A DNA stretch of 64,000 nucleotides from Candidatus Omnitrophota bacterium (GTDB lineage: Bacteria; Omnitrophota; Gorgyraeia; B26-G9), in NCBI GenBank assembly GCA_018817165.1, contig JAHITY010000099.1, positions 391-64,390 on the forward strand, read 5' to 3'. A model generated the notes under the pieces. That model searched no databases and was not told where the DNA came from. It saw nothing but the letters and a program-made list of their open reading frames with translations. A program made the position numbers and the translations under genes. Below are positions 7,278 to 54,773 of the stretch, piece after piece; position 1 is the stretch's first letter; each line of letters starts with the position of its first letter.

Positions 7278-7408
7278 CGGGTTCGCTCTTTGTGTTTCTA
7301 TACAAAAAATTTCCTACCCTACAAATATTTCCATTGACATATTGCAAAAGTGTGTTAATTTATACATGTAAGATAAATATCTGAAAATACTCTCAGGAGG
7401 TATCTACG

Positions 7409-12472: not shown

Positions 12473-12490
12473 TTAGGAGCATTATGTAGT

Positions 12491-13084: not shown

Positions 13085-13502
13085 ATGGAAACTCCTCTTT
13101 TCGCAATTGCCTTTCCGTAATCATCTTTTCCTTCCCATATTCTAAAATATACTTCTGCTGATCCTCCGGTAGCTTTAAGAGATTTAATAGCTGACATACC
13201 CGCACACTTGAAATCCCTAGTTTTTGGGCTAGTTGGTTTTGGTTTAGCCCTTCTTCCTTCATAATTCGTGTAAACTCTAGTGCCTTTTCAATAGGATTTT
13301 CATATGCTTGTACGTACTGATAATGACGCATTTCTTTCTGCGAAACAATATTACTTTTTGGTATAAAATCTGGCTTTTCACCACGAAATAAAGTCTTCGT
13401 TTTATTCTGCCATCTGTAATGGTATGGCAATACATCAGTTACAACGCGTGAATTTGTTCGCTGTGAGTCTCGTTCGGGGAGCCAAAAAATCAGAGAGTCC
13501 AA
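13047..13502 (-). CDS. Small ParB/KorB-like HTH protein, copy 3 (track start is TTG; likely true start is an internal ATG)
   Basis: LAQKLGISSVRVCQLLNLLKLPEDQQKYILEYG; near-identical to the copy at 10130-10447. Confidence 0.5.
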   Translation of the reverse strand: MDSLIFWLPERDSQRTNSRVVTDVLPYHYRWQNKTKTLFRGEKPDFIPKSNIVSQKEMRHYQYVQAYENPIEKALEFTRIMKEEGLNQNQLAQKLGISSVRVCQLLNLLKLPEDQQKYILEYGKEKMITERQLRKEEFPSKSLTPYQNKFS

Positions 13503-13818
13503 AAGGGCTCTCTTTTTTTGTCCGCGAGAACTCGAACCTCAAAAAAGGGTATTAGGGGAAAAGACTGTTTTCCCCTATCCCGAATGGGGAATATTTCTCT
13601 GGGTTAGCATCGGGACCCCGAAGAGTTTCTTTGGGGAGTTACTTCATTCGGGGTCGGCGTACTGGAACTTCTCGCGCAAGGAAGGGGTATCCAAGGGGAA
13701 CTGAAAGAGTGCACCTTTAAGGAGTGAGCGGACCTGTTTCTCAAGGGAGCGCTTGTCCCGCCGTATTTTGGCGGGGACACGACAGGTTCGGCGAAGCGAA
13801 AGTCCTCGCGGGGGGAGC
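13474..13818 (+). repeat. Structured ~345-bp repeat, copy 1: GGGGAGCCAAAAAA box, terminator hairpin (CAGAGAGTCC-AAAA-GGGCTCTCT-T7), then a GC-rich element with a closing helix (CCGCGAG...CTCGCGG), a variable middle and a conserved 3' block with hairpin GTCCCGCC-GTATTTT-GGCGGGGAC
   Basis: Direct repeat of 18131-18444; the 3' ~125 nt are nearly identical and the closing helix covaries between copies. Confidence 0.7.
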
Positions 13819-14000
13819 TAAAAAACCTAACAAGTTGTAACTAAATAAGTTGCAGCGGGTTATTTTTTTGCAAAAATCATTGATTCGTGGTATACTTTAA
13901 AATCTTTTTTAGTATGTGATTTTAAATCCTAACTTATTAAAATTGAATAAGTTGAAAGATAAGTAGCTTTAAGGCGGAATGAGGATCATTTAGGGTAAAA

Positions 14001-17000
14001 ATGAGAAAGAAAAAAAGTATCTATAAAATAATAGTCAATATTATTATATTAGCACTTGTGCAGGTATTAGCATTTTCTAATTCTGCATGGGCTCTTGAAG
14101 CTTCTTTGCAAAAAAACAGAGATACTTTATCTCCGCAAATCCAAACAAGTCTTCCATTGATTCAAAATGCCTATAGTTTTTTAAAAGCAAATAAAGAACA
14201 GGGGAATACTCTTTTCTTGCGCACAGAGGCAAGTATTGAAAAAACGCCAAGTGAGTTAAGAAAGGACTTACTTGAGCTTATGGAATTTCTTGGTAAAAAA
14301 GATTTTAAAATTCTTATAGATATAGCTTTTAAAGATAAAGTGCTAACTCAAGATCAATATGAAGTTTTGCTTTATTGCTTAAAGCAAGGGGCTGTATCTC
14401 TTGAAAAAATAGATAGGACTTTTTCACAGCAAAGAAGGGTTGATATTACTACTGTGACCAGGTGGCTTGTAGGCACAAGTGAACAGGGAAGAAAGGAAAT
14501 CGGGGCATATCAGATAATTTATGAGGACGCTTCGCCATCTCTTAGGGAGAAAATAGATCAAAAGCTGGCGGTTTATATTAAAGAAAATATATTTGATTTC
14601 TTCTTGAATCATATGGATGCTGAAATTAAAAATGTCATGGAAAAAGCTATTGAAAACTGGCAGGGTGAAGAGGTTGAAAAAGAAATTATTAGGATTAAGC
14701 TAAGCAATCCTGGTGTTGCATGGAAAGATATATATGAGCATGAAAATGTGAACTTAAAAAAAGGCAAATTTTATAAGACCCTTAAGCGTATAAAAAAGAA
14801 TTTCAATAAAGCTATTGATAATGAGGGAACTGTAATTATTGAAAAAATAATCATAGAAGAAAGCCCTCGAGCATTGAAATATCTTGCAGGTGATCTTATG
14901 GAATTAAAGACGGAATTGCTTGATGTAATCGAAACATCAGAAAGATTAAAAGTAAAAAAAATGGATGAAGAGGAAAAAAGCTTTGTGCTTAGAATGAGTT
15001 TGTTTGAAGGTGAAAAACATAGAGCAATCGATAAGATAAATAAATTTTTTCTGGGCAGATCACAGATGTTCTTGAATGGAAGAACTCTGGAGGAGAATTT
15101 TTATGAAGGGGCAAAGAAAATAAAACAGTTTTTATTGCTGCCTGGAGGGAAATATTTATGCTTCTTTGAGCCTAAAGATGAAATGATCAATAATTCCTTT
15201 GAAAAAAATAATCTTGTTTTTGCTGTGCTAAATTCAAGCTCTAAGGCAAAAAGAATTAATTTAGATAAATATATTATTAGTGGAAAAAGCTTGAGTTTAG
15301 GAGGGAATTTTGTCTGGAACCAGTACAAGATTAATTGCTCAAATTTTCAATCTGCAAATATTGAGTTTCGGGTTGAAAATGATATCCCACGCTTTATTAA
15401 ATTATTGCAAAATAAAGAGGGGCAACAGATCAGAGATAATAAAGGAGAGCCATTAGTAATCGAAGTCTTTGATATGTTTGGACAGAAGGTGTCAGTGCGG
15501 CGTCAGCTTGCGGACAAATATTTTTTAAAACTAAAGCTGAATGATAAGAAAATTCGTTGTTCATATAATGAAGCTGAAAAAAATGTGCATGAGGCGATTG
15601 TTGATCTAAAGAGAATCAGTATTGATCTTGATTCTTGGCAGTTTAAGAAAAAACTGCGTGAAGTAAAAAAAGCTTTGTGGGTTATAAGAGGAGATCTTAA
15701 GGGTAAGGAGCAAGAAACAGCGAGGTTTATCTGTGATATGGCAGGCAGAGATGATCTTTTTGAAATACTACAGAATATTTCGATGAAGGGAATGTTTAGA
15801 TCATATTTAACTTTTCAATCAGCTTTTGATGCTTATATGGCTCGGGATAAAGATAAAAGACATTTTGACAGCCTTAACTGCAGTAAGGCGAAAGGCGGAG
15901 ATATTACTTTGCTTGATGCGGTAAGAAATTATGGGATTTTAAAGCGTAAAATAGAAGCTGAATATAAAGATGTGCATGAAGCACATAAAGAATTTATGTT
16001 TATGGATAAGAAAGATATTTCGTATGTGCAGCTTTCCATGAGAAAAGACGATGGAGGCAATCCAATGTTATTAAAAGCATTTTATAAATTTCGCCAGGAA
16101 CTAAAAGATATATATGGTTTTACTTTGCCTGATAATACACATAAAAGAAAAAGTAAAAAGGAAGTTCAAGCCTTTCTTGATAATATTCCGGAGCGAGAGC
16201 AGACTCCTAAAAAATTGAAAGAAAATAATCTTTGGTGGGTTTATAATGGAGCAAAATATTATAAAATTGTATTGCCAAAAGAAAGAGATTTTATAGATAA
16301 TACAGGATATGATAGCTATAAAGAAAGAATTAATAATAGAAATAAATATCAAGAAGTGGACATGTTTGAATTGTGGCATAGCATGGAAACGGATCAGGAG
16401 GCAAGGAATCAGTTAATTGAATATTTTATGCCGATGATAATAGATACTGTTGAGGATTTTAATGGTCGAAAAGGAAAATATATTACAGAACATTCCCAGT
16501 TTTATCTGGATGGCGATATTAGTAGGGCGAGTGTGGCAATGATTGAGGCAATTGATGACTGGCATCCTGAGATGGATATGATGTTAGATGGTTTTGTTAA
16601 GGATCGGATTATCTCAGCGTTTAAGAAAAGTATAAATGAATTTTATAAAGATAAAAGAATAATGCAGTCATCGAATACGCCTAAAGGGAATAAAGATGGG
16701 AATTATGCAGGTAAAAGTGGTCCTTTTGGCAATGGGAGGATTAATACTCTTGATGATAAATTTGAAGCAAATACTGTTGCTGCTGATGATGCATTCGATA
16801 GGGTTCAGCGTATGGAAAGGGCAGTTGCCGGCATAGGTAAAGGGGATTACAGCTTCTTAGTTGGTAGTGAATTTGAAATCAATGAATCTATGCTTATACC
16901 CAAAATTAGAAAACAGCAATTTGCTGAAGAACTGCGCAGTTATCTGTTAAAGCGAGGTGTCCTTGAAAATATTTCAGGTAAATTTGCTATTTGGGTTATG

Positions 17001-17990
17001 GGCAGTATGGGAAATATCGGGCTTGCTCGAAAAGGAGACAGCGATGTTAATCTCATAGTGCTTATGCAGGCAAGCAATGGCCAATGTAAAGAAGCTGTTT
17101 GGAGTCTTGAGGCGCTGATCGGTACAGGAGAAATATTTGAGGGTAATGATGAAAATTTTATTTTAGAAATCGGAAAAAACGGGAGCAGACAGGAGCTGGA
17201 TTTTTATGCTCCGCAATTTGTTTCATTGCTTGAGAAATATGAGGTAGGAATAAATGGTAAAGGAGCTGCTTCTATTGAGGTGGTTTCCACAAATGCAGCG
17301 GGCTATGGAGATAATCGGGCATTGAAGCGGGCGCGTTTTCATGTGGTTGATGATATTACCGGGATGGGTACCAATGGGATATTGGTATTGGAATCTGATG
17401 AAGGGATAGCCCAAGAACTTAAACAACAAGTCAGAGACAGGTTTGTTGATGATTTTGAGTATCATATTGATTTTGCGAATGAGTACTTAATTTATTTTTT
17501 TGCAGAGCAAGTGGAAAAACTAAAATCAACGATTGATAAGAATAAAAAGGTTGAATTACCTTTAGAGCCAAACGTTGAAATTCAAGAAGAGGCTTCTGAG
17601 GAATCTTCCATATTTCAGAAAGCAGATTCGCCTAGAAATAGAGGCTTTTTTCAGGATAAGGTCAGGCTAGAGGTGTTTAATGGGTTTGTATCGATAAGAT
17701 TAATTGATCTTATCGAAGGCGGCGTGATGGCTTTTAAAGATGAGTGGCGGCATATGCTAACTGTATTTGAAGGAAAAAATATTTTTGTGGATGACTATCT
17801 TAAAACAGATAATGTAGACCCCGGTAAAGAAGAAGCGATTGAAGCGTTAAGTGATGAATTATTGATTTATCTTCAAAAAGAGATTCAGCAAATGTCTGGT
17901 CATCATGAAAAAGGGGGGCAGGGTTGGACATGCAGCAGCTTTGACTTTGAAATGTTAAGAGATAATGCAGAAGTAAAATCAGCAATATAA
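14001..17990 (+). CDS. Giant (1329-aa) signal-anchored, Lys/Glu-rich protein with an embedded minimal nucleotidyltransferase (Pol-beta superfamily) motif
   Basis: N-terminus MRKKKSIYKIIVNIIILALVQVLAFSNSAWA (signal peptide or anchor); about aa 993-1015 WVMGSMGNIGLARKGDSDVNLIVL fits hG[GS]-x10-D-x-D-h (GlnE/GlnD/CD-NTase-like); AT-rich and Lys-rich composition; strong TTGCAA-N17-TATACT promoter at 13868-13896. Confidence 0.55.
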   Translation: MRKKKSIYKIIVNIIILALVQVLAFSNSAWALEASLQKNRDTLSPQIQTSLPLIQNAYSFLKANKEQGNTLFLRTEASIEKTPSELRKDLLELMEFLGKKDFKILIDIAFKDKVLTQDQYEVLLYCLKQGAVSLEKIDRTFSQQRRVDITTVTRWLVGTSEQGRKEIGAYQIIYEDASPSLREKIDQKLAVYIKENIFDFFLNHMDAEIKNVMEKAIENWQGEEVEKEIIRIKLSNPGVAWKDIYEHENVNLKKGKFYKTLKRIKKNFNKAIDNEGTVIIEKIIIEESPRALKYLAGDLMELKTELLDVIETSERLKVKKMDEEEKSFVLRMSLFEGEKHRAIDKINKFFLGRSQMFLNGRTLEENFYEGAKKIKQFLLLPGGKYLCFFEPKDEMINNSFEKNNLVFAVLNSSSKAKRINLDKYIISGKSLSLGGNFVWNQYKINCSNFQSANIEFRVENDIPRFIKLLQNKEGQQIRDNKGEPLVIEVFDMFGQKVSVRRQLADKYFLKLKLNDKKIRCSYNEAEKNVHEAIVDLKRISIDLDSWQFKKKLREVKKALWVIRGDLKGKEQETARFICDMAGRDDLFEILQNISMKGMFRSYLTFQSAFDAYMARDKDKRHFDSLNCSKAKGGDITLLDAVRNYGILKRKIEAEYKDVHEAHKEFMFMDKKDISYVQLSMRKDDGGNPMLLKAFYKFRQELKDIYGFTLPDNTHKRKSKKEVQAFLDNIPEREQTPKKLKENNLWWVYNGAKYYKIVLPKERDFIDNTGYDSYKERINNRNKYQEVDMFELWHSMETDQEARNQLIEYFMPMIIDTVEDFNGRKGKYITEHSQFYLDGDISRASVAMIEAIDDWHPEMDMMLDGFVKDRIISAFKKSINEFYKDKRIMQSSNTPKGNKDGNYAGKSGPFGNGRINTLDDKFEANTVAADDAFDRVQRMERAVAGIGKGDYSFLVGSEFEINESMLIPKIRKQQFAEELRSYLLKRGVLENISGKFAIWVMGSMGNIGLARKGDSDVNLIVLMQASNGQCKEAVWSLEALIGTGEIFEGNDENFILEIGKNGSRQELDFYAPQFVSLLEKYEVGINGKGAASIEVVSTNAAGYGDNRALKRARFHVVDDITGMGTNGILVLESDEGIAQELKQQVRDRFVDDFEYHIDFANEYLIYFFAEQVEKLKSTIDKNKKVELPLEPNVEIQEEASEESSIFQKADSPRNRGFFQDKVRLEVFNGFVSIRLIDLIEGGVMAFKDEWRHMLTVFEGKNIFVDDYLKTDNVDPGKEEAIEALSDELLIYLQKEIQQMSGHHEKGGQGWTCSSFDFEMLRDNAEVKSAI

Positions 17991-18130
17991 AAATATATTA
18001 AATAAATATAAAATATTCAGCAATCAATGTAATGTGGTTTAGATGCTTGTTTAACAATTAGAACACGGCACATTAAGTTGTAAGTTTTTAAGCCTTTCTG
18101 AATCTTAAAAGTTACGAAATTTGTCAAATA

Positions 18131-18444
18131 CGGGGGAGCCAAAAAAATTAGAGAGTCCTTTTGGGCTCTCTGATTTTTCAGCGAGGACGAAGAACCTTAA
18201 AAAAGGGTTTTAGGGGAAAAGATGCCCGGGCTTACAAATCATCTTGAGAGCCTTCTGATGTTTCATGTTCAGGCATTCTCATAGGATTGTTCCCTTCCTA
18301 TCTCGAATGGGGAATATTAAGGGGGAACTGAAAGAGTGCCCCTTTAAGGAGTGAGCGGACCTGTTTCTCAAGGGAGCGCTTGTCCCGCCGTATTTTGGCG
18401 GGGACACGACAGGTTCGGCGAAGCGAAAGTCCTCGCGGGGGAGC
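18131..18444 (+). repeat. Structured repeat, copy 2 (direct repeat of 13474-13818), preceded by a remnant of the ParB-like gene 5' end
   Basis: CGGGGGAGCCAAAAAAATTAGAGAGTCCTTTTGGGCTCTCTGATTTTT, then closing helix CGAGGAC...GTCCTCG, then the identical 3' block with hairpin 18382-18405. Confidence 0.7.
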
Positions 18445-18506
18445 TTGTTTTTTAATCCATTATTATAGAAGCTTATAGTAAGGGGACTTTTTTTTATCTT
18501 GACAAA

Positions 18507-19656: not shown

Positions 19657-19973
19657 GTTCTTTTCTATTACAAGTTGCGGAATAGAGAGAAGCCAGTAAA
19701 ATCAGAGAGTCCAAAAGGGCTCTCTTTTTTTGTCCGCGAGGGCAAAAACCTCAAAGGGAGTTTATAATCTGATATTATATAGTAGTTCATGTGAAAGTAT
19801 AAGATAAAGCAATGCTTCTATTAAGTAATAAAACATCAATATTGATAGCTTAGTGCAATTATAAGTATTTAAAGCATTATATTTGATATATTGTTGAATA
19901 TTGCAATAATGTATCAAATATGATATATTATATATTATAAGAGTCGTTAAAACTTCAAAAGTGAGGTGTTAAT

Positions 19974-21610: not shown

Positions 21611-21995
21611 AAAATACCTTTAAAAATCAAACAACCAGAAATGTGTTTTGAAATAATTCCGTATAGTCTTTTATCTCTAGCCAGTTGCGAAACTCGTCTA
21701 GCCCAGGGAGCTAAAAAATACGGAAGTCTATTTGGGCTTCCGATTTTTTTACTGCGTTTTGTTTCTGCGCGGAAGGTGGGATTTTTAATGAAGTATAATT
21801 TATGAAATATCATGAAATTCGCAATTGAATTATCTCCTATTTAATAAAAATAAGAAAACTGTTGCGAGTAATAGGTGAAAGCTTGTTCACTTTCTATAGG
21901 TAAAATTTAAAACACCTTGAATTAATTTATGATTGGAGATACAATTGTATTAATATTTATTCGGATAAATAAAAATCAAATAAAATTCAGGATAT

Positions 21996-23216: not shown

Positions 23217-24278
23217 ATGATATTAATATTTGATCCATCCTTTTCCGCTTTACGCTGGTGTAATATAGAGGGTGAAAATTGTTCAGAATTTAAATGTGAG
23301 TTTAGCCCGGGATGGTTTGATCGGGTTATGAAAAGTATTGGTAATGTTAAGGAAATCGAAGCCATAGGTTATGTTTTATACCATGGTGGTGAAATTATTA
23401 GAAATCCCGTTGAAATTATTTCTTTGGAATTAATCAAAAAGCTGGAACAATGTGTTAAGTTTGATCCGGAGCGTAATGATTTAACTTTGAAAATTATTAT
23501 GCAATGTATCCGGCAATTTAAAGAAATAAAACATATTTTGCTTTGTGATACTGCCTTTTTTGCGGATTTGCCTGAGGAGGTAAGTACTTATGCGGTTCCT
23601 TATGAATTGCGGGAAAAGGGGATTAGGCGATATGGCAGGCAAGGTTTAAGTCATCAGTGGGCATGGGTGCAAACTAAAGCACTCGCGGAAAAAAATATTT
23701 GTAATGCCATAAGCGTTTATTTGGGCAATCATACCAATATGGTTGCGATAAAAAAAAGTAAAGCCCAAGAGACAAGCGTGGGTTTTACAAGTGTGGAAGG
23801 GATAATATCCACAGTAAGCTGTGGGGATATAGATCCTACTGTTATTTTTCAGATGCATTCTACCGGTATGTCCTTTAGGACAATAAATAGTATATTATCT
23901 CAAGAAAGTGGTTTTAAGGCTTTGTTAGGTAAAAAAAGCAGCTTATCCGATATTTTAAGCAAAAAGGGGAGTTCTAAGGAAATTGCTTTGCGGGAGATTT
24001 ATTGTTACAATATTTTAAAATATTTGGGTGGTTTTATTTCCTCGATTGGCGGGGTGGATACGCTAATATTTATTGGTGAAGATATAAACCAGGCTGTACC
24101 TTTTATTCGTGAAATTTGCTGCAGACTAAGATTTCTTGGGTTAAAACTTAAACGAAGCGTGACTAAAAGTGGAACATTATTTAATTTAACAACAAAGGAT
24201 TCTCCGATCAAAGTTTTTTGTTTAAAATATAATAAATGGAAAGTTTTAGCTTATTGGGCTAAGGAGGGATTGAGATGA
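23217..24278 (+). CDS. Degenerate acetate-kinase-like paralog (probable pseudo-enzyme)
   Basis: Co-linear with AckA (CDTAFFADLPE, VSCGDIDP) but lacks the N-terminal GGSSS phosphate loop and has RQG in place of the catalytic FHG histidine. Confidence 0.6.
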   Translation: MILIFDPSFSALRWCNIEGENCSEFKCEFSPGWFDRVMKSIGNVKEIEAIGYVLYHGGEIIRNPVEIISLELIKKLEQCVKFDPERNDLTLKIIMQCIRQFKEIKHILLCDTAFFADLPEEVSTYAVPYELREKGIRRYGRQGLSHQWAWVQTKALAEKNICNAISVYLGNHTNMVAIKKSKAQETSVGFTSVEGIISTVSCGDIDPTVIFQMHSTGMSFRTINSILSQESGFKALLGKKSSLSDILSKKGSSKEIALREIYCYNILKYLGGFISSIGGVDTLIFIGEDINQAVPFIREICCRLRFLGLKLKRSVTKSGTLFNLTTKDSPIKVFCLKYNKWKVLAYWAKEGLR

Positions 24279-25063
24279 AAAAAGAGAAGCGTTATCTTGA
24301 AGATGTGGGCATGAAAAATTTACCATTTCCCATGAATGTTGTATCCAAAGTTAGTAAAGACGGGCAATTTACGATTGCCGATATTTCTATTTCTGCGCGG
24401 ATTATGCAGGAATTTGAAGCTGATTGGATCGATAAGTTTATCCAGATTGTGCATAACCATCGTGATCGAATAGGGACAAAAACGCTTAAAGTTAATATCA
24501 AGGATTATGTCAAACAGTTGAATGCTTCAACAGTAAAAATTGATTTTAAGTATCCATTTTTTATTGAGAAGCGCACGCCTGTATCCAAAGAAAAATGTTT
24601 AGTTAGGTACCTGTGTACTTATTCGGTTAAGTCTAATGGAGAAGCAAAACCTACTGTTATTTTTAAGATAAAGATTCCCTGTATAACTACATATCCTGTA
24701 TCATTTGAAAAATCCGGGGGGCTTTTTGGTCAATTAAGTACAATGGTTATAGAAACAGAATCAAAAAAAGATATTTATCCTGAGGATCTGGTTGCGCTTG
24801 TGGATAAACATGCTTTAGTTCCGATATACTCATTTTTAACCAGAGAAGACCAGGAGTTTGTTATTCAGAAAATACATTCAGAAAAGAAAACTAGCGTTGT
24901 GCTGGTTGATGAAGTGAAAGATGAACTAGCCCGGATGCAAAATATTGAATCATACAAGGTTGATTGTTTTAACTTTGGGATGCTGCATTCTTATGGGACA
25001 TCTATTGGAACCGCAAAAAGCATGTGGATCCCCGGAAGTTCTTTTGAAGAAAATGAAATATAA
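24275..25063 (+). CDS. Hypothetical protein, possibly a divergent T-fold (FolE2/MptA-like) protein lacking the catalytic HMSR-type motif
   Basis: N-terminal LEDVGMKNLPFPMNVV resembles the FolE2 N-terminal region; no catalytic motif found; its start overlaps the upstream stop, so the three genes look like one operon. Confidence 0.25.
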   Translation: MKKEKRYLEDVGMKNLPFPMNVVSKVSKDGQFTIADISISARIMQEFEADWIDKFIQIVHNHRDRIGTKTLKVNIKDYVKQLNASTVKIDFKYPFFIEKRTPVSKEKCLVRYLCTYSVKSNGEAKPTVIFKIKIPCITTYPVSFEKSGGLFGQLSTMVIETESKKDIYPEDLVALVDKHALVPIYSFLTREDQEFVIQKIHSEKKTSVVLVDEVKDELARMQNIESYKVDCFNFGMLHSYGTSIGTAKSMWIPGSSFEENEI

Positions 25064-25361
25064 TAGTTGATTTTTGCGATAAAAGGGGTCATATTGGAAA
25101 ATGTTGATAGAATAATAGCTTCTAGATACTGGGAGATCTTAAATCAGGACATTTTTTAGTGAAAGAGGAAGCCTGAAATATAATTATAAAGTTTTGAGTT
25201 AAAAGTAAAACCTTCGCCAGAAAAAGGCGGGGGTTTTTGTTTGTTATTTTTGTTGCTTTGGATTTGATGGGGTATCATATTGTATTTTCTTTACAGGGAA
25301 TTATTGGATAAATATTAAACGATACTTTATTATAATAATACAACTGATTTAGAGGAAAGAA

Positions 25362-30363: not shown

Positions 30364-30930
30364 ATGAAAAAAATAAAAAACAATACAGAAGCAATATTAG
30401 ATAAATATGCATCGTATGCGGCACTGATTCCTGCTATTAGTTTAATCATTTTTATGCTAATGCATGCTTTTTTGGGAATTTTAAACTTTGCGCATGATAT
30501 TTCAAGAATGATTAATACCCGAGATTTCGGCAATTTTCATCCTCAATCGCTCATATGGCTAGAGGTAGTAGCAACTATTATAATTCTCCTTAAAGCTTAT
30601 AAAGTTTTAATGTCTTATGTGAAAAATCACCATCTTATGCTTAAGGATTTATTAGAAATAACTTTTACTGCTTCCTGGTTAGAGCTTTTATTTAATGCTT
30701 CAAAATATGAATTAGATATGAAAATTATTTTTCTAGTTTTAGGATTATCAAGTATATTAATTTACTTAATATTCTATTCAAAAATAACGTCAATAAATGA
30801 ACTCTCCCATAAAAAAGAGGACGCTATAGCTAATTTTGAATCTTTTTCTCAAAAAAATGAAAGTAATAGAATAATACGGGACATCTATTGGAACCGCAAA
30901 AAGCATGTGGATTCCCGGGACTTCTTTTGA
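30364..30930 (+). CDS. Hypothetical membrane protein; its 3' end runs into a duplicated copy of the 3' end of gene 24275-25063 in another frame
   Basis: ORF track; TM-rich; 30878-30954 duplicates 24995-25071. Confidence 0.4.
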   Translation: MKKIKNNTEAILDKYASYAALIPAISLIIFMLMHAFLGILNFAHDISRMINTRDFGNFHPQSLIWLEVVATIIILLKAYKVLMSYVKNHHLMLKDLLEITFTASWLELLFNASKYELDMKIIFLVLGLSSILIYLIFYSKITSINELSHKKEDAIANFESFSQKNESNRIIRDIYWNRKKHVDSRDFF

Positions 30931-31098
30931 AGAAAATGAAATATAATAGTTGATATTTTTGATCTCAAACTTGAAACTAATTTAACCGCGGAGTTAAAAA
31001 ATACGGGAGTCCTTTTGGGCTCCCTGTTTTTTTAGAGTCTTTTGCTTTATCCTCCAGAAGCTCCCAAAGAAAAATCTTGACAGAATTATATTTTTGTT

Positions 31099-37849: not shown

Positions 37850-38208
37850 TTTTATAATTAAAAAACTCATTCAGCATTAAAAGTAAAAATGTACGCGATG
37901 GTCATTCTGTTGAATTTACGTGTTCTGTGGTGGGGAATTGTTTAAATTTAAAATATAAAGTGCGCGTCGTAGGATGTAAGTATCATGGTTTCTGAAGTCA
38001 TAAATATTTGTAAATAAATGTTTTGCATTGTTAAAATACGTCGTGGAATAAGCTTTTTGACAGTTTGATGGAGCAGCTGTAAACTAAAAATATAGCTATG
38101 AAGTCCCGAGTTGAGAAGGAAGAAATCCCGGACTATAAAAAAGTAAAACCTTCGTCAAGAAAAAACGGAGGTTATTTTATTTTCAGATAAAATCCTAATG
38201 AAATTAGA

Positions 38209-43609: not shown

Positions 43610-44329
43610 ATGGACGAACTTATGGATAATATCAGAGCGCTTTTTTTTGATGTCGGGGGGACTATATTTGATTGGAAAAATACAGCGCGGGAAAAAATTC
43701 AGACATTGGCTGCTGAAAAGGGTCAAGTAATGGACTGCGAAGCCTTCGCCGTTGACTGGCGGGAAGAAATGATGAGAGTTCACATGCAGGTTAGACAGGG
43801 AAATCTGCTATGGATAAATTCTGATGATATGCATTTAAGGGCATTAGACAGTTTGACAAATAGCTATCCGTTTTTAACTTTAATTGACCGAATGTCTCTG
43901 GTGAAATCTACATGGCATAATCTGAAAGCTTTTGCCGGAGCTCCTGAAGCAATCAGCCGTTTGCGCAGTAAATATACGGGTGTAGTTCTTTCCATACTGA
44001 GCTGGGAAAGCATTGTCAACAGTTCAAAAAGAGCCAATGTGCAATGGGATGGGATCCTTTAGTGTGAGTTTTTGGGTTATTATAAACCTTCTTTACAAGC
44101 TTATCTTAAAGGGATTAGCCTCTTGGGATTAAAACCTGCTCAGACCATGATGGTTGCAGCCCATAAAGGTGATTTGGCAGCGGCTCAGACTGCCGGGATG
44201 CATACGGCATATGTTCGTGTCCCAGAAGAAGATTATCTGGGTGAAGGCTTTGGGAAAGTAGGCGAGATAAAGTTTGATATTGAGGCGGATGGTTTTGAAG
44301 ATTTATGTAATAAGCTAGAAGTATATTAG
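43610..44329 (+). pseudogene. HAD-superfamily (haloacid-dehalogenase type II-like) hydrolase interrupted by an in-frame TAG at 44060-44062
   Basis: ORFs 43610-44062 and 44072-44329 are in the same frame (..WDGIL*CEFLGYYKPS..); motif I FFDVGGTIFDW (D-x-Y/G-G-T), motif III YKPS, motif IV HKGD. Confidence 0.6.
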
Positions 44330-44383
44330 AACAGCGTTCTATTAAATGATTAAGCATAATTTTCTAAGTATTTTTATACATTA

Positions 44384-44462
44384 AAAAGTTGCAAAACTTG
44401 TCTAATATGGGGAGTCACTAAAATAAAAAAGGAGTCGATTATGGCTCCTTTTTTATTTTATA
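44384..44462 (+). repeat. Roughly 79-bp repeat, copy 1 (AAAGTTGCAAAACTTGTCTAATATGGGGAGTCACTAAAAT box plus A-tract/T-tract hairpin AAAAAAGGAG-TCGATTATGG-CTCCTTTTTT)
   Basis: Near-identical (3 mismatches) direct repeat at 49835-49914; belongs to the GGGAG-AAAA plus hairpin family. Confidence 0.75.
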
Positions 44463-44654
44463 ATACCTCTAAATAATTAATTTTAAGGTTATAGGGTAAT
44501 CGGGTTTATAAAGAAAAATCAGTGAAATTTGCAAATTATCAATTAAGTGGTATACTTTATAAAATACTTTATTAAGCACTAATGTTTATAGCTTAAAATA
44601 TGCTGAATCACTGTTTGGTTTAAAAATTCTATACTATATAAAAGGATACGGAAA

Positions 44655-47600
44655 ATGTTAAGAAGAATATTAAGTCTCATATTGATTTACAGTTTTGTAT
44701 TATTGCCAGTGCAGCCGGCATTAAGCGGAATTGCCCATTCTTCTGCTCAAACTATTGTTGTTTGCCAGACGCTTTCTCCAACTCTTGTTCTAAATGAACA
44801 AAACATGAGGGGGCTGTTTCTTGATGCTAGTACTTGGGATCTAGCTGCTTTGTCTGAATCCATTGAACTAGAGAATGATTTAATAAAAGAAAATATAAAA
44901 TCAAGGTATTTTAACGGCCATCAAATTCTTAGTATTTCAAAGGAGATTTTTGATTCAGCAATAAAAGTAAGCAAATTATTTTTTGAATATGCCTTTCCAA
45001 AAGCAAAAAAAACCATCAGAAATTCAATATTTCTGATTACTGTGTTCGCACAGATACTTATGCCGATATTCTCTTTTGCGGGAATCGGTACTTATATGGC
45101 GGCAAGCAATATGTTGGTTACATTTGATTCTGATAGCGGGGAAGTCAAGATGATGACTCTTTCCGGGAAAACATTTATAAACTATATCCTGGGAAAAGAT
45201 GGGAAAAAAACACCCCTGATGCTTACTCCCGGTTATGATGAAGATAGCATTCTTAATCAGTTTACCGCGCCAAGCGAAGCGGGAAGTGCTATTGTTAATA
45301 TGAATGATGATCCGAGAGCCGCAGCGGATCCGTTCACTGATTATTATAAGCTGACCTATACCAATAAAGACATTGATCCTGCAATTGCTGCTGCAATACT
45401 TAATTCAGAGGAAACAGGCTTGAGAGCAGAACCAAACATTATGCATGAGGTCAATGCTATTAATAATTATTTTGATCCGAATATAAAACCTTATGACCTT
45501 GAAAATTGGGGACTTCTGGCTTTAAAAATACCCAGTGCATGGGATATATTAAATCAATATGACAGCAATGTATTTCCCCCAGTAGGTGCAGGGATTATGG
45601 ATAGTGGTGTTTGGGATTACAATTCAAATCTGCAAGGAATGGTAATAAATCCTGAGCAGAGCTATTTTGATCCGAACAGTGACAATCCCCACGGAACTAT
45701 AGTTGCCGGTGTCTTGAAAGAAGCAGCGCCTTATTCGTCTGTAAAAATTATTAATGCCGGAGGCTTGCCCGGCGGATCCGGAACCACGGAATCTATTTTA
45801 ATGGCGATCAAAGACCTGATTGATCTTGCCATTGAAAATGGGCTGGATAAAAGGCTGATCGCAAATTGCAGTTTCGGCTCTGATGGGCTTATGGAAAATT
45901 CCATTCTAGATGCTTGGAAACGTGCTGCTGAACTAACCAATATTTTTATTGGTCCTGCCGCGGGAAATATAGGAACATATTTTGATCAAAATAATTGGGG
46001 GCATTATTGGGAAGGACCGCTTTTTCATCCAGTAAGTTCGATTAATATAAATGGGCAAGCATCAGATTTTAGTAATTACAGCCAGTGGATTCCCTATGCT
46101 TCGGGTGAAGATATCTTGGGCATTTTTCCTGATGGACATACAGAGTATGTGAGCGGCACATCTTTTTCCGCACCTTATAGAAACGGGATTGTAGCAGATA
46201 TAATAATAAACCAGGCTATGGTGCATGGGTTTTATTCTGTTCCGTTTGATCATGAAGAAATTGCCAGCATTATCTGGAATACTGGTGATATCAAGATCAA
46301 TACTGTGGATAGAAGACAGATGCTGGTTGTTAATGCTGAACAAGCGCTTAAGGTGGCCTATCCGGGTGTGGCGCTGATTGAAAATGAGGATAGAAACATA
46401 GTTGTATATAATGGGCGTCCGATTATCGGAACAGCACGTGTATACGGAGGCTGGGAGCATTTTTCTTCATACACGCTGCAGATAAAAAACTTTGCTGAAG
46501 ATGAATGGACAACGATTAATTATAGTGAGACTCCGGTAACTAATGGAGTGCTGGGTACGCTTGATGAAAATATAGCTGAAGGCTGGTATGCTTTGCGTTT
46601 GACTGTTAAAAACACAGAAGGCCAGGAATTTGTATGTGAGGGCAATATCGGGGTTAATCGTTCGCTTGTTCCGGGTTGGCCGCAGGAAATGCCAGGATGG
46701 GTATATTCAAATATATTAGCACAGTTGAATGATTCGCCAGACAAAGAGATGTTTATGCTTATGTCTGGCAAGAATAGTATTGTAAAAGACTCGCAAGGTA
46801 ATGATGTAGCGGGTTGGGAAAATGCCTCTGAAACAGAGCGTCCTTATGGCTTAACATTGACAGCTGATTTTAGTAAAAAAGATGGAACCGAGGGAAGCGA
46901 TGGAATTGACGAATTAATAGTCAATGAATTCCCTGCTACGATAACGGTTATGAATGCAACTGGAACAGTTAAATGGAGTGAAAATATCTGCAAAGCAGAG
47001 TATAGTTATTGTCTGGTGCAGGATATGATTGTTGTTGATTTTGACGCAGACAAAAAACCAGAACTGGCAATAACCGCATATGTTGTGGATAATGAAAAAA
47101 ACCTTTGGAATTTAGTGCAGGTATTTGAGCTGGGGAATAATGGGATGAAAGAAATTTATCAAACTAAAGTCCCGGAAGCCCGGTACGGCAGTACTGTTTT
47201 CTTGTTTGCAGTAGAAGCAGGCAACAATAAAAAAAATCTGGGTATTGGAATAAGCGGCAATGATGGCCAGAGCAGAACAGATAATAAATATGAGACTAAA
47301 TTAAGTCTTGTTGATATTACCCTGGGTAAGGAAATCGCTAGCCGCAATTTTATTGATAAGGTAATATACAAAACACCTGTATCTGTGGATTCTGATGGGG
47401 ACAATAAATCAGAAATATTTATCCTGGGATTAGATGCTGAGCCTTTAGACCGGAATGAGCCAACAGTTGCTGAGGTCTATGGCTTGACTAGTGATTTAAA
47501 AGATTCATTGCCGGGGTTTCCGGTTAGATTAGCGGGGGTTCAGACACCACCCATAGCTTTGGCTACAGAGCCTGCAGCCGGCAGAACCATGGGCGATGAT

Positions 47601-48887
47601 AAGGGCTGGCGGATAGTTTTTGGTATGGAAGGGGTATATGACAAGACGAATCGATTGGTTATAGTGCCCATCGATGATCCTCAGAGCACTATGCAAATCA
47701 TGACAGCTCCCTCTGTGAATAATCCATTGATAATCACAGTTGATAATACTGTGGGTGATAATGAGCAAAACAATGAAGATTATATGCAAACGCTTGTTGC
47801 TGTTTCTGTAAACCGAGGAATTGCACTATATGACCTTAAAACAGGGAAATTAGAAAGGTCAATACCATATGATGATTATCCTACAGCAGGAGTGGTAGCT
47901 TTTAATGGTCAGCATGGGTCGATTCTTTTATCTGCTGGAGCAGGATATCATCCTGTGTATAAATATACAGATTATCCCGCTGAAATGTTTCTTATGGAGG
48001 TTAAGGGTTTAGATGGTTCGAAAGTGAAAGGTTGGGTCCAATGGGGTGAAGTCCGCGGTGAGGGGCAGACAGGATTGCCGCAAATTCTGCCATTTGATAA
48101 AAATGATGAAGATAGAGAAGATGATATAGATAATTCTGATGATGGGCAAGAAGATCTGGATGCCTCGGATGATAATATCGATAAAGATAAAGACCCGGAA
48201 GTAAAAAAACCTGGTTCACGACGTGGAGGACTTGGACGGAGTACGGATTGGTTGGGACGGATTGAAATCAAACCAATAGTATCTAATGAGGTTACGGAGC
48301 CAGAAAAGATAGAGGCAGAAGAGCTCAAGACAATGCCGGAAAAATTAAAAAATAATAAGGAGCGTGATTCTAATTCTAAGAAAGCAGCAGAATCCACTGT
48401 TATTTCAGATAAAAAATATCCGGTTGCGAGCAAAGTAAAACCAGAAGAGCAAAAAGTGGAATATGCGCTGAATATTTCTGAAAAAAAAGCCGACAAAGCT
48501 ATTGAACATACGCAAGATTTGTCAGGAATATTTAATTTATTAAGCGTGCTGTCTATTGCCTGGGTTGCAGTGTGTATTGGGGGAATAGGCACGGTTACAG
48601 TTCTTACTGGATTAATAGTTGCTCGTCTATGGGAACGGCTGAACAGGTCAAATAAACAAGCAGTTGAGGATACTGATACTGATGTTTCTTCGAAGTCTCC
48701 TAATAAAACGCAGGCTAAAAAAGCGATATTCATGGGATTTGCACAGCATAAGCAAGGAAAAAATGCTTCAAAACAGACAGTGAGCACTGATCCGGATCAA
48801 CATAAATATACCGTGATACCCCCTGCCCTCCAAGTTGAAAAAAGGGATATTCTATTTACTTCTTACGCGATGGAGCGTTCAATCTAA
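44655..48887 (+). CDS. Giant (1410-aa) cell-surface subtilisin-like (S8) serine protease with FG-GAP/beta-propeller-like repeats, an acidic low-complexity region and a C-terminal TM anchor
   Basis: Signal peptide; S8 catalytic triad regions GAGIMDSGVWD (Asp), NPHGTIVAGV (His), VSGTSFSAPY (Ser); D.D.DG repeats; C-terminal TM helix LSVLSIAWVAVCIGGIGTVTVLTGLIVARLW. Confidence 0.7.
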   Translation: MLRRILSLILIYSFVLLPVQPALSGIAHSSAQTIVVCQTLSPTLVLNEQNMRGLFLDASTWDLAALSESIELENDLIKENIKSRYFNGHQILSISKEIFDSAIKVSKLFFEYAFPKAKKTIRNSIFLITVFAQILMPIFSFAGIGTYMAASNMLVTFDSDSGEVKMMTLSGKTFINYILGKDGKKTPLMLTPGYDEDSILNQFTAPSEAGSAIVNMNDDPRAAADPFTDYYKLTYTNKDIDPAIAAAILNSEETGLRAEPNIMHEVNAINNYFDPNIKPYDLENWGLLALKIPSAWDILNQYDSNVFPPVGAGIMDSGVWDYNSNLQGMVINPEQSYFDPNSDNPHGTIVAGVLKEAAPYSSVKIINAGGLPGGSGTTESILMAIKDLIDLAIENGLDKRLIANCSFGSDGLMENSILDAWKRAAELTNIFIGPAAGNIGTYFDQNNWGHYWEGPLFHPVSSININGQASDFSNYSQWIPYASGEDILGIFPDGHTEYVSGTSFSAPYRNGIVADIIINQAMVHGFYSVPFDHEEIASIIWNTGDIKINTVDRRQMLVVNAEQALKVAYPGVALIENEDRNIVVYNGRPIIGTARVYGGWEHFSSYTLQIKNFAEDEWTTINYSETPVTNGVLGTLDENIAEGWYALRLTVKNTEGQEFVCEGNIGVNRSLVPGWPQEMPGWVYSNILAQLNDSPDKEMFMLMSGKNSIVKDSQGNDVAGWENASETERPYGLTLTADFSKKDGTEGSDGIDELIVNEFPATITVMNATGTVKWSENICKAEYSYCLVQDMIVVDFDADKKPELAITAYVVDNEKNLWNLVQVFELGNNGMKEIYQTKVPEARYGSTVFLFAVEAGNNKKNLGIGISGNDGQSRTDNKYETKLSLVDITLGKEIASRNFIDKVIYKTPVSVDSDGDNKSEIFILGLDAEPLDRNEPTVAEVYGLTSDLKDSLPGFPVRLAGVQTPPIALATEPAAGRTMGDDKGWRIVFGMEGVYDKTNRLVIVPIDDPQSTMQIMTAPSVNNPLIITVDNTVGDNEQNNEDYMQTLVAVSVNRGIALYDLKTGKLERSIPYDDYPTAGVVAFNGQHGSILLSAGAGYHPVYKYTDYPAEMFLMEVKGLDGSKVKGWVQWGEVRGEGQTGLPQILPFDKNDEDREDDIDNSDDGQEDLDASDDNIDKDKDPEVKKPGSRRGGLGRSTDWLGRIEIKPIVSNEVTEPEKIEAEELKTMPEKLKNNKERDSNSKKAAESTVISDKKYPVASKVKPEEQKVEYALNISEKKADKAIEHTQDLSGIFNLLSVLSIAWVAVCIGGIGTVTVLTGLIVARLWERLNRSNKQAVEDTDTDVSSKSPNKTQAKKAIFMGFAQHKQGKNASKQTVSTDPDQHKYTVIPPALQVEKRDILFTSYAMERSI

Positions 48888-49227
48888 TTGCTGTTAAAAA
48901 ATTGTGCCACCAAAGGTCATGAGTATATTAGTAGATATGCTCAGTGTAACTCATTTAATACGGGAGCAAAAATAATAAAATCACTACATGGTTAGTGGTT
49001 TTTTATTCTGTTTAGCAATTCGGTGAGAAGCAAAAGGGATTTTAAAGAAAAAAAGCGTTTTCTCCCTTATCGGATAAATGTACTTTTTTGCGCAAGGTAG
49101 AGGAACGGCGATTATTTTTATCCTGAGCTTAGAAAATAAAAATTAGCTTGAGATTAAAGTAATCCAGGAGTATATTAGCATAAGAAGAACAACTTTGGGA
49201 TTGAAAGAATTAGTTTCGAGATTCCCC

Positions 49228-49259
49228 GTCCCAAAACAGTGGGACACGCGAGGGTTGCC
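49228..49259 (+). repeat. Short REP-like hairpin GTCCC-aaaacagt-GGGAC followed by ACGCGAGGG, a miniature of the conserved hairpin in the 13.5 kb and 18.2 kb structured repeats
   Basis: Shares GTCCC..GGGACACG(A/C)..AGG with 13755-13790 and 18382-18417. Confidence 0.45.
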
Positions 49260-49305
49260 CCTAAAAATTTAAAGGACCATCTTTTTCAATTTCAGAAAGA
49301 CATTT

Positions 49306-49788
49306 ATGAGTGTAATAGAGAAGGCTTTTGCAGTTCTGCAAAGAATAGAATTTGTCGCAATGGCTACTTCTGGTAAAAATGGAAAGCCAAATTCCTCTTC
49401 TAAATTATTATTAAAGATAGAGGGCAGCACGGTGTATTTTATAGATTATAGTATCGGCAGAACCGCCGAAAATCTACAAGTTAATCCGGAAGTTTCTTTA
49501 TCTTTTATTGATATTAATTCTCTGCTTGGTTTTAGATTGAACGGTAAGGTGAAAATTATTGGAAAAGGTAAGACCTTTGATGAATGCCGGAAAGATTTGC
49601 AGAAAAAAGAAATAAAGCTTTCCGCGGAGCGGATTATTAGAGGCATACACGAGGGTAAGTCGTATAAAGAATTTGAATTGGCAATTCCTGAACGCTTCTT
49701 GGTGTATAAGGTCAAGGTCGAAGAAGGTTGTGAAATAAGCCCTCGCGGTGAAATAAAACGTGAAGACAGTTCTGTCATCCATGGCTAA
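49306..49788 (+). CDS. Pyridoxamine 5'-phosphate oxidase-like FMN-binding split-barrel protein
   Basis: EFVAMATSGKNGKPNSSSKLL..GSTVYFIDYSIGRTAENLQVNPEVSLSF pattern typical of the PNPOx-like family. Confidence 0.5.
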   Translation: MSVIEKAFAVLQRIEFVAMATSGKNGKPNSSSKLLLKIEGSTVYFIDYSIGRTAENLQVNPEVSLSFIDINSLLGFRLNGKVKIIGKGKTFDECRKDLQKKEIKLSAERIIRGIHEGKSYKEFELAIPERFLVYKVKVEEGCEISPRGEIKREDSSVIHG

Positions 49789-49834
49789 TTCTCGGCATAG
49801 TTTTCATTCAATGGTCATGGATTAAACTCATTCA

Positions 49835-49914
49835 AAAAGTTGCGAAACTCGTCTAATAGGGGGAGTCACTAAAATAAAAAAGGAGTCGATTATGGCTCCT
49901 TTTTTATTTTATAA
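49835..49914 (+). repeat. Roughly 79-bp repeat, copy 2 (direct repeat of 44384-44462)
   Basis: AAAGTTGCGAAACTCGTCTAATAGGGGGAGTCACTAAAATAAAAAAGGAGTCGATTATGGCTCCTTTTTTATTTTATAA. Confidence 0.75.
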
Positions 49915-50086
49915 CACCTCCTGAAGCCTTTGGTGAAGATAGGGTTTTTCTCTATGGAGTGAATGCCAGAGCGGGGGAGACAATTATTTTAACCACTTGT
50001 AAATAAATAAGTTGCTAGGGGTTATTTTTTTAAAGCTTTTAAGCATAATTATTGATAATATGGTATGTTTATAGTAGAGGATAATT

Positions 50087-50785
50087 ATGAAAAAAAATGT
50101 TGTTTTATCAGTATTGTGCTTACTAATTTTATCATTCGCATATGTCTTTGGGGTAAAAAGTGGAACTTGTTTGCTGGCTAATCCTGTAAACAAGTTTGTT
50201 TATACGATTAGCCCCTTGGGAGTAGCTGATTTTAGTGATTTAGGAATAGTTAAGTTATGCGGGCAGGATGTAAGATTGCATACTTTGAAAACGCGAATAT
50301 TTGGGTTTGAGGATACTGAAATAATTTATAGCGACCTAAAGACATTCTTGCCGATTCGCATAGAACGTGATGTCGCCCGGTGGTTGGGAAAAGAGCGTAT
50401 AGTAGAGGAATATGATCAGGAAAATTTCACGCTTACTACCAAGAAGTTTAGAGGCTGTAGACAAATACAGGAATCTGTAATTGAAAATGATGGCCCGATC
50501 AATAATGCGATTCTGGCGCTATATGATTTACGTACATTTCCTGAACTGGAAATAGGGCAAAGTTTTAAGGCAAATCTTCCTACTGAATTTGAGATAAAAT
50601 TGGAGTCAATAGATCAGCTAAAGATCAGCAAAGATATATTTGAGACCTATCATTTTATAAGTGTCCCTGATAAATTTGAAACTTGGATCAGTAAGGATAA
50701 ACGCAGAATGCCTCTAAAAATAAAATTGCGTATTGGTGTGGGATATACTTTGGTATTAAAAGAGTATTTTGAGGATTCAGATTGA
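50087..50785 (+). CDS. Hypothetical secreted protein
   Basis: Signal peptide MKKNVVLSVLCLLILSFAYVFG; no catalytic motif recognised. Confidence 0.35.
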   Translation: MKKNVVLSVLCLLILSFAYVFGVKSGTCLLANPVNKFVYTISPLGVADFSDLGIVKLCGQDVRLHTLKTRIFGFEDTEIIYSDLKTFLPIRIERDVARWLGKERIVEEYDQENFTLTTKKFRGCRQIQESVIENDGPINNAILALYDLRTFPELEIGQSFKANLPTEFEIKLESIDQLKISKDIFETYHFISVPDKFETWISKDKRRMPLKIKLRIGVGYTLVLKEYFEDSD

Positions 50786-50960
50786 GACAACTAGTCGCGA
50801 AACTTGTCCGATATTGGCAGTTCAATATTTCAATTATCTATGAATTAATGATTAATGGTGCATTTCCTTGTGAAGTGTTATAATATAAAAATAGAGTAAA
50901 CGTCACGGAGGGGCTACGTGGCGTTTTTAGTTTTATCTGATTAGTTTTTGAGAAATATTC

Positions 50961-54358: not shown

Positions 54359-54773
54359 TAAAAGCAGTATATGCAGAGACATAATAGTTTATTAAATTTA
54401 GTTGGGCTAGGGGTGTAGTATTAGCTGCAATTAATTCAGCAGCACAGATTGTATAGAGAATATCGTATTGTTTATCAAATATAAAAAGACAATAAATCGG
54501 GTTTTTATATTTTTTAACTTATTCCAAAATTAAACAATTGCAAAACTCGGATAGTATAGGGAGTAAATTAACAATCAAAACTTTTTATGCTTAGTTGTTG
54601 TAATATGATGTGGTATAATATATTTCAAGTGGACGATTGAAACAGTTTAGATATTAGAGGCAATTGATGTGGTGAGTTAGAATTAGTCTCCTAATGCCTG
54701 ATCTGGCCCTGTTAAGTAATTAAGTCTTGTGTCGATTTATATTCCGGATTAATATTCAACTGTATACACTCTA

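Follow-up and report, generated by a model that had tools for sequence, protein, structure and literature searches.

The 64,000 nt stretch of DNA analysed here (the window) covers positions 6969–70968 of a 71,088 nt contig from a Candidatus Omnitrophota bacterium. It contains an 87 nt direct repeat, the two copies of which (44383–44469 and 49834–49920) enclose a gene for a large protein with a subtilase (S8) domain (44655–48887) and a gene for a PNPOx-like protein (49306–49788). We propose that these repeats are probably junction modules derived from recombinase attachment (att) sites, within an island anchored at a tRNA-Asn gene, and that the S8 and PNPOx genes are two cargo units of this island. 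The modules would owe their origin to site-specific integration by large serine recombinases (LSRs).

The two copies are identical at 83 of 87 positions (95%), as measured by a repeat search of the window, and are spaced by 5451 nt; the near-identical 79 nt repeats with three differences described at this place in a first-pass annotation lie inside them. The four mismatches are at 44393 (A/G), 44399 (T/C), 44408 (T/G) and 44464 (T/C), leaving an exact block of 55 nt (44409–44463). Each copy lies on the plus strand and is a full module, placed after a HAD-like gene (copy 1) and after the PNPOx gene (copy 2). In copy 1, a left arm (GTTGCAAAACTTGTCTAATAT, 44388–44408; profile E value 1.6e-2) is followed by a core (GGGGAGTCA, 44409–44417) and then by an A-tract, the hairpin GGAGTC-GATTAT-GGCTCC and a U-tract (44420–44459), which together have the look of a bidirectional intrinsic terminator. 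Copy 2 has the same arrangement, with its left arm (GTTGCGAAACTCGTCTAATAG, 49839–49859; profile E value 1.1e-5), the core GGGGAGTCA (49860–49868) and the A-tract, hairpin and U-tract (49871–49910). Both copies fold into strong hairpins (folding energies, −26.5 and −28 kcal/mol; z-scores, −5.4 and −5.9). The core differs by one mismatch from GGGGAGCCA, which matches the acceptor end, discriminator G and CCA of tRNA-Asn. Three of the four mismatches of the pair fall to the left of the core, and none occurs in the 55 nt that run rightwards from its start (p of about 0.016 under random placement). No similarity extends beyond the copies into their flanks, where local alignment scores stay within the shuffle range. 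The copies had also been assigned to a family of boundary elements with GGGAG, an A-rich spacer and a hairpin, and we find 11 other members of it in the window. Over the equivalent stretch, these share only 44–67% identity with one another and with the pair. The family is real, and the 87 nt pair therefore stands out in it, apparently as one that is either unusually young or homogenised.

The general module consists of a 21 nt box (GTTGCRAAACTYGTCTAAT), the core GGGGAG(T/C)CA, an A-rich spacer and a hairpin, the stem of which is extended by the A- and U-tracts. The box, in the form GTTGCRAARCTYGTCTA-N6-GGAG, has six matches in the window compared with 0.5 expected, in the modules at 18111, 21684, 44388, 49839, 50794 and 54537; the match at 21684 is exact, and those at 18111, 50794 and 54537 are degenerate. 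A scan of one genome per species with the pattern GTTGCRAARCTYGTCTA-N(3–9)-GGAG gave 32 loci, with an estimated 15 or so chance matches. The spacing is exactly six in 21 loci (Omnitrophota, 14; Zixibacteria, three; Saccharibacteria/Patescibacteria, four; Firestonebacteria, one; a bin labelled Planctomycetia, one), and the matches with other spacings lie inside long open reading frames (ORFs) of unrelated phyla. A profile search of the scan loci added more degenerate copies, most of them 3–100 nt past a stop codon on the same strand and ahead of a hairpin and a T-run; the hairpin sequence varies among these copies, in contrast to the conserved linear left arm. Searches of phage and plasmid collections for the box gave nothing meaningful, and literature searches with the DNA or peptide strings found nothing relevant.

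The minus strand of the box always reads W-L-P-x-[LIV]-D-E-F-R-N. There is no normal gene in any frame on either strand of the box; a plus-strand reading (VAKLV and a stop) has no upstream ORF and was rejected. Profile searches with the minus-strand peptide retrieved essentially only short predicted ORFs that share an end unit of about 30 residues, WLPxLDEFRN[WF]Lx[ST]EEAxxLYKELxxI followed by a stop. The idea that the peptide is the N-terminus of a large protein was dropped on the basis of these short ORFs, beside which two long proteins (P0091 and P0107) were listed, and no relatives of the peptide were found in Pfam, NCBIfam or the PDB. Comparison of the codons that follow the core in five DNA copies gives 44, 37 and 66 mismatches at the first, second and third codon positions, 36 synonymous and 62 nonsynonymous codon differences and an in-frame indel of 21 nt. 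The third-position excess and the in-frame indel argue that this tail evolved as protein. The three copies in the window are relics, in which a stop directly precedes L-P and the frame closes after 16–27 codons: copy 1 reads L-P-I-L-D-K-F-C-N-F-L, an LSR-tail relic with TGA before it and a stop after 16 codons, and copy 2 reads L-P-L-L-D-E-F-R-N-F-L.

The protein to which this tail belonged is indicated by the few tail ORFs that have a longer genuine N-terminal part (for example P0072, ...LFKSSEVDTKRQILNTVLQNCEANDATLVPTYRKPFDLLAKGLSRSNWLPVLDEFRNWL...). This part matches the C-terminal 100 residues of proteins annotated as 'recombinase family proteins', the best-annotated match being a 499-residue Legionella protein with Resolvase, Recombinase and Zn_ribbon_recom domains, namely an LSR. 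In L043, L016, L045, L046, P0128 and P0154 the WLPxLDEFRN sequence directly continues a C-terminal LSR-homologous fragment (residues 389–496 of the Legionella LSR; E value 1e-14). The intact Legionella LSR ends in ...KWLPGQDLNL, residues encoded antisense to the 3′ end of a tRNA-Asn(GTT) gene, and W-L-P is therefore the antisense of GGGGA-G-CCA, i.e. of the acceptor end, the discriminator and the CCA. An LSR-like ORF in L020 (146–1525) has a different end and no adjoining module, and was not used as evidence. In L046 (115–2662), an LSR-like C-terminal fragment with a WLPLVDEFRT tail (1427–1762) lies between two identical two-gene units (115–1012 and 1765–2662).

The only tRNA in the motif loci of the genome scan is tRNA-Asn (L012, L027 and L029), always upstream of the modules and co-oriented with them; a locus from a recombinase-based scan of metagenomes (L047) has tRNA-Gln. 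In L012 the order is tRNA-Asn, a transporter, a module, a DNA-alkylation repair gene and a second module. In L029 (2562–7330 of the Saccharibacteria scaffold JAQBRT010000001.1), SmpB and tRNA-Asn are followed by eight short co-oriented ORFs, at least four of which have a clear module within 7–30 nt and most of the others a weaker match; their types include a deaminase, a histidine phosphatase and RibD_C/DHFR-like and PhnB-like proteins. The modules of L029 repeat the downstream spacer and hairpin of the locus's own tRNA-Asn, and no recombinase is found in the 8 kb of sequence covered. This locus looks like an integron-style cassette array.

The first 18.4 kb (L051) of the contig from which the window is taken show the context of the modules. 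The contig opens with 31 nt of tRNA-Asn 3′ end (GTCCGAGGTTCGAGTCCTCGCGGGGGAGCCA, positions 3–33), identical at 30 of 31 positions to the tRNA-Asn of L012; the contig break falls inside the tRNA gene and its 3′ part alone is visible. Next to it, an LSR of at least 527 residues is convergent with the tRNA, with its C-terminus (...PMLQFGSPARTRTSD) running antisense into it, and has the domain order of an LSR: Resolvase (E value 1e-33), Recombinase (1e-26) and Zn_ribbon_recom (9e-15). The edge of the island is thus a tRNA 3′ end with a recombinase beside it, and exact copies of this 3′ end recur in the window as direct repeats: 17 nt at 18428–18444, 14 nt at 13801–13814, 11 nt at 18131–18141 and several 9 nt cores, all on the plus strand. 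The 87 nt copies themselves hold only the 9 nt core, with one mismatch. About 15 modules, such partial tRNA-Asn copies of 14–17 nt among them, are spread over 54 kb, every one on the plus strand.

The stretch from contig position 33 to window position 7245 can be read as a 14.2 kb LSR element, E1, because joining its two junctions in silico at the core yields one uninterrupted ORF of 650 residues, LSR plus ParB-type helix–turn–helix (HTH). E1 is apparently a complete integrative element as judged from its sequence, with a putative attL at the tRNA and a putative attR (7237–7294, plus strand) made up of the core GGGGAGCCA (7237–7245) and a hairpin; the two proposed sites have GGGGAGCCAAA in common. 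A tail ORF encoding the ParB-type HTH (6843–7277, minus strand) crosses the core as F-G-S-P, in the same frame as the LSR. Between the ends, the gene order is the tRNA-Asn 3′ end, the LSR, DUF4145, a repressor-type pair (M78 peptidase and HTH_3), a Prim-Pol/DUF5906 replication gene, two DNA methylases with a BpuJI-like protein, a PIN_12 protein and the ParB-HTH tail ORF. Just beyond E1, 7409–10585 and 10816–13519 are tandem diverged copies of one segment (74–94% identical), each with an ORF of 263–265 residues, an AbiEii-type ORF, a further ORF and an opposite-strand ParB-HTH ORF beside a module; they resemble a pair of relic elements that lack a recombinase and carry an AbiE-type system.

These observations suggest the following course of events. 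LSR elements would integrate at the acceptor end of tRNA-Asn, with strand exchange presumably in the core GGGGAG(C/T)CA, and the left arm of a module would be the antisense of the last LSR codons (WLPxLDEFRN...) as carried by the non-integrated element. As the 3′ end of the recombinase gene contains the core, the tail of the gene would be left at the far junction upon integration, and this junction would then consist of the antisense tail, the core and the target sequence after the core, including a terminator. The right arm (A-tract, hairpin and U-tract) may double as a terminator-like structure for the upstream gene. Repeated integration and decay, perhaps with recombination between modules, would yield a co-oriented array of cargo, each segment ending in a module, with a complete-looking LSR element at the tRNA and older recombinase-less segments further out. 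Since another module splits it at 48962, the S8–PNPOx segment looks like two units, S8 and then PNPOx, which would be bounded by the modules at 44383, 48962 and 49834. The 95% identity of the outer pair would go back to a single event, a recombination or a duplication, in which the S8–PNPOx block was placed or re-placed and a module was duplicated or re-used (for example, circular cargo integrating at a resident module), rather than later homogenization.

The most serious alternative is that the modules are conserved intrinsic terminators and nothing else, that the pair is 95% identical through gene conversion of nearby copies and that the genes were never mobile. The first-pass annotation had itself named conserved terminators as the scenario that would undo its reading, and half of this is true: the modules do look like intrinsic terminators. 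Both copies fold as a strong A-tract/hairpin/U-tract directly after genes, and from the predicted fold each would qualify as a stable hairpin followed by a U-run, 3′ of a gene on the same strand. Modules resemble rho-independent terminators in having a G+C-containing hairpin between an A-tract and a U-tract, 50–330 nt past stop codons, and by our own reading the family accounts for about 11–12 of the roughly 19 terminator-like sites in the window. A simple consensus terminator scan of the window did not list the two repeat sites, we guess because the stem has too few G–C pairs. The sharp edges of the repeat without target duplication, the unremarkable composition of the segment and the position of the 55 nt exact block, which spans the structurally constrained hairpin, also agree with this alternative. 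However, it leaves unexplained why the opposite strand of the left arm encodes an LSR tail, why the core is the end of tRNA-Asn and why arrays start at tRNA-Asn genes beside an LSR; nor does a plain terminator account for the 30 nt that are conserved ahead of the hairpin, or for their identity across phyla. We consider it unlikely.

Several observations weigh against our preferred reading of the repeats as att-derived junctions. Empty-site or strain variants of the segment, which the first-pass annotation had proposed to look for, were found neither in relatives nor in metagenomes or Logan contigs, and no circular-junction sequence was found either; a scan of metagenomes for the exact hairpin gave zero matches. 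Logan contigs that match the flanking genes cover the left junction in a single sample only, and there they break at the repeat. In relatives with a 74–80% identical homologue of the downstream DUF3108 gene, synteny is not conserved. There is no recombinase in or beside the segment, nor elsewhere in the window, and its GC content and skew match those of the flanks, with no compositional anomaly. LSRs recognize sites of about 40–50 bp, recombine at a short dinucleotide in their centre and normally need only this 2 bp overlap; an identity of 87 nt is therefore not required, gene conversion or homologous recombination fits it equally well, and gene conversion within an att-derived family may be the source of the identity of the pair. 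The module hairpins of Omnitrophota are of at least three types, a diversity that is not predicted by simple serial integration at one attB. Some island genes (Mla and ABC transporters) resemble core functions, and the searches recovered C-terminal fragments but no intact LSR with a WLPxLDEFRN tail. The proposed link between flanked segments and giant surface proteins draws on two cases. The suggested modular acquisition at boundary repeats nevertheless gains a concrete and known mechanism, because the modules are homologous to recombination junctions and are arrayed downstream of tRNA-Asn with an LSR element. The junctions of LSR tail, tRNA-Asn end and terminator and the array at tRNA-Asn thus speak for that suggestion, whereas its other part, that the segment moves as a unit, found no such backing; the S8–PNPOx segment may have been mobile.

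It is very unlikely that the 87 nt unit is a small non-autonomous transposable element, similar to a miniature inverted-repeat transposable element (MITE), a repetitive extragenic palindromic (REP) sequence or a bacterial interspersed mosaic element (BIME), that copies itself into sites 3′ of genes. The family is indeed dispersed, multicopy and strand-biased, with hairpins and with decayed copies at orthologous sites, and a Y1 transposase gene adjoins a DUF3108 homologue in L004. Yet we find neither terminal inverted repeats nor target-site duplications nor similarity of the flanks, the hairpin varies between copies while the linear left arm is conserved, and a different origin is indicated by the homology of the unit to an LSR tail and to the end of tRNA-Asn. 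Scarcely probable, too, is that the box begins a functional small antisense gene (about 30–38 residues, WLPxLDEFRNWLxSEEAxxLYKEL) or a cis-antisense RNA, regulating the upstream gene. The codon-position signature and the consistent position of the stop would fit, as would an ATG just ahead of WLP in a few copies (for example P0034 and P0020). However, a start codon is missing from most copies, among them all three in the window, and a stop directly precedes L-P; a hairpin and U-tract lie immediately upstream on that strand; the Saccharibacteria conserve the first ten codons only, the remainder overlapping the upstream gene; and an LSR tail accounts for the coding signature. It is hardly tenable that the assembly created the pair through a chimeric join at a repeated terminator. 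Logan contigs, built with a short k, do end precisely at the repeat; however, the copies differ at four positions, all four flanks are matched at 100% identity by independent contigs from the same run, and a contig of a second run (SRR7067536) extends through copy 2 without a break. A 5456 nt Logan contig that equals 44434–49889 at 100% identity ends where it does because the k = 31 graph breaks at the 55 nt exact block, and is no evidence of a circle.

Other readings of the box were also rejected. As a promoter (sigma-70, sigma-54, extracytoplasmic function sigma or a phage-type GGGAG start) it has unfit spacing and shows no enrichment in a consensus scan, no tRNA or transfer-messenger RNA gene was found at the repeats, and its pairing with 16S, 23S and 5S rRNA is no better than that of shuffles. 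Rfam 15 gave no match at the gathering score; sub-threshold matches only were seen, and those that aligned did so mainly on the terminator hairpin.

Around the segment, all genes discussed lie on the plus strand. Upstream of copy 1, the HAD-family hydrolase gene (43610–44329) is divided by an in-frame TAG (44060–44062) into two ORFs of the same frame, which may indicate a pseudogene or a sequencing error. The S8 gene (44655–48887) encodes a protein of 1410 residues with a weak subtilase domain, and a word-based search of 5.8 billion proteins, in which the 8000 best word-sharing candidates were scored, found only the protein itself as a homologue. Between it and the PNPOx gene (160 residues; 49306–49788) lies the divergent module at 48962–49007, with GGGAGCAA, an A-rich spacer, a CACTAC/TAGTGG hairpin and a T-run. 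Right after copy 2 comes a second module (49973–50031), with GGGGGAGACA and a TTGTAA..GTTGC hairpin, which is 78% identical to 13811–13869; copy 2 and this module are thus two adjacent junctions without a gene between them. The DUF3108 gene downstream of copy 2 (50087–50785) is followed by a degenerate module (50794–50823), and its 80% identical homologue in another metagenome-assembled genome (MAG) has an intact module 23 nt past the stop. In this related MAG (L004, 1–631), the Y1 transposase gene directly upstream of the homologue is of the IS200 type.

The remaining modules of the window, all on the plus strand, differ in how much of each arm they retain. The module at 10532–10585 has a diverged partial tRNA-Asn end (GAGTCTCGTTCGGGGAGCCA, from 10521) and a ParB-HTH ORF (10130–10447, minus strand) just upstream. 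A module of the same type at 13476–13519 is crossed by a ParB-HTH ORF (13047–13502, minus strand; a mechanical ORF call with a TTG start inside the hairpin loop) that reads ..F-W-L-P-E-R-D through the core. At 13801–13869, a partial tRNA-Asn 3′ end, 14 nt of which are identical to the tRNA-Asn of the genome, is joined to a hairpin. After a 1329-residue protein, the module at 18111–18178 has a degenerate element-side (P) arm, GGGGGAGCCA and a hairpin; at 18428–18453 there is a partial tRNA-Asn 3′ end, identical at 17 of 17 positions to the tRNA-Asn at the start of the contig. The module at 21684–21750 has an exact P-arm box, with LPGLDEFRNWLEIKDYTELFQNTFLVV (27 codons) on its minus strand, and that at 30988–31033 has the core GCGGAGTTA and a GGGAGTCC/GGGCTCCC hairpin. 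The last module seen in the window (54537–54566) is a degenerate P-arm box with GGGAG and without a hairpin.

Some further repeats should be mentioned. An inverted copy of the tRNA-Asn T-arm, truncated at the core, lies just after module hairpins (19 nt at 13522–13540; 8 nt at 18181–18188 and 19734–19741), an arrangement that no explanation so far fits; we had read CCGCGAGAACTCGAACCTC (13522–13540) as a relic of the KPFDLL region of the recombinase, and withdrew this since it is the inverted 19 nt copy. A 127 nt repeat (13688–13814 and 18315–18441; 97% identical) flanks the 1329-residue gene (14001–17990), the product of which has no Pfam domain; the repeat has a partial tRNA-Asn at its 3′ end, an open minus strand throughout (LPREDFRFAEPVVSPPKYGG...) and no match in Rfam. 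An 89 nt repeat (24992–25080 and 30875–30963; 92% identical) is a duplicated gene 3′ end and not a hairpin module: it covers the last 72 nt of a folE2-like gene (24275–25063) and the end of an unannotated ORF of 188 residues (30364–30930). A second terminator-associated repeat family (1633–1705, 25201–25245 and 38115–38183), consisting of GTCCCGAG..AAATCCCGGAC..AAAAAGYAAAACCTTCG and a hairpin, is unrelated in sequence to the GGGAG family.

The closest known kind of system is the tRNA-anchored island built by integrase elements. The tycheposons of Prochlorococcus are such islands. They grow by successive integration of elements with site-specific recombinases; each element has a partial tRNA repeat on either side, and older elements are displaced outward as newer ones arrive. 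Pieces of tRNAs and of integrases are found dispersed in the islands. Their cargo consists of adaptive or defence genes, an LSR is present in 27 of 937 elements and their mobility has been shown experimentally (bioRxiv 10.1101/2020.12.28.424599). A tRNA gene at the island edge, a recombinase beside it and partial tRNA repeats are common to both. In contrast, the hosts here are Omnitrophota, Zixibacteria and Saccharibacteria, the system pairs an LSR with tRNA-Asn, the repeat is mostly an element-side arm (the recombinase tail) with 9–17 nt of tRNA, and mobility is inferred from sequence. What appears to set the present system apart is a recombinase gene that spans its own attachment core, an element-side arm conserved across phyla and, in Saccharibacteria, single-gene arrays at tRNA-Asn.

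Integron arrays share with the arrays described here the co-oriented, often single-gene units, a site-like repeat soon after the stop codon and a single anchor. DHFR/RibD_C-like, PhnB/glyoxalase-like and deaminase enzymes, kinds that occur in L029, are common in integron cassettes. However, our inspection found no attI and no RYYYAAC/GTTRRRY boxes, the arrays are anchored at a tRNA gene and associated with a serine recombinase. An integron was rejected, as no IntI turned up and there is no attC architecture; no tyrosine recombinase was found among the proteins scanned with Pfam, which cover part of the window ORFs, or in the Pfam listing of the first 18 kb of the contig. A MITE or REP/BIME system was likewise set aside, with no inverted ends, no target duplication and hairpins that vary between copies. 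Temperate mycobacteriophages described by Broussard et al. in 2013 reportedly have the attP core inside the repressor gene, with integration-dependent truncation of the gene. There, as here, a crossover in the 3′ end of a gene gives different C-termini in the integrated and excised states; in the present case it would be the recombinase itself that is affected, the part exchanged being a putative 30-residue tail or a ParB-type HTH domain of 140 residues.

We may wonder whether these features belong to one scheme, in which an LSR lineage in Omnitrophota, Zixibacteria and Saccharibacteria runs an integron-like capture system at tRNA-Asn, excising and re-inserting in trans recombinase-less cargo units (including S8 and PNPOx) that are bounded by modules of tail, core and terminator, with the activity or directionality of the LSR switched by exchange of its C-terminus, either the 30-residue tail or the ParB-HTH. 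As a joint proposal this is speculative, and we advance it only tentatively. Omnitrophota and the candidate phyla radiation are uncultured, have small genomes and exchange genes in ways that are little understood. If our reading of the modules is correct, the tag GTTGCGAAACTCGTCTAAT-N-GGGGAGCCA would delimit flexible islands in such genomes and the cargo units within them, such as giant surface proteins, defence systems and stress genes, and conserved terminators in these genomes could be recycled att sites. There would also be an LSR lineage with the attachment core in its own reading frame, in which integration rewrites the C-terminus of the enzyme. Such rewriting could be a built-in switch, and may interest those who develop LSRs for genome engineering.

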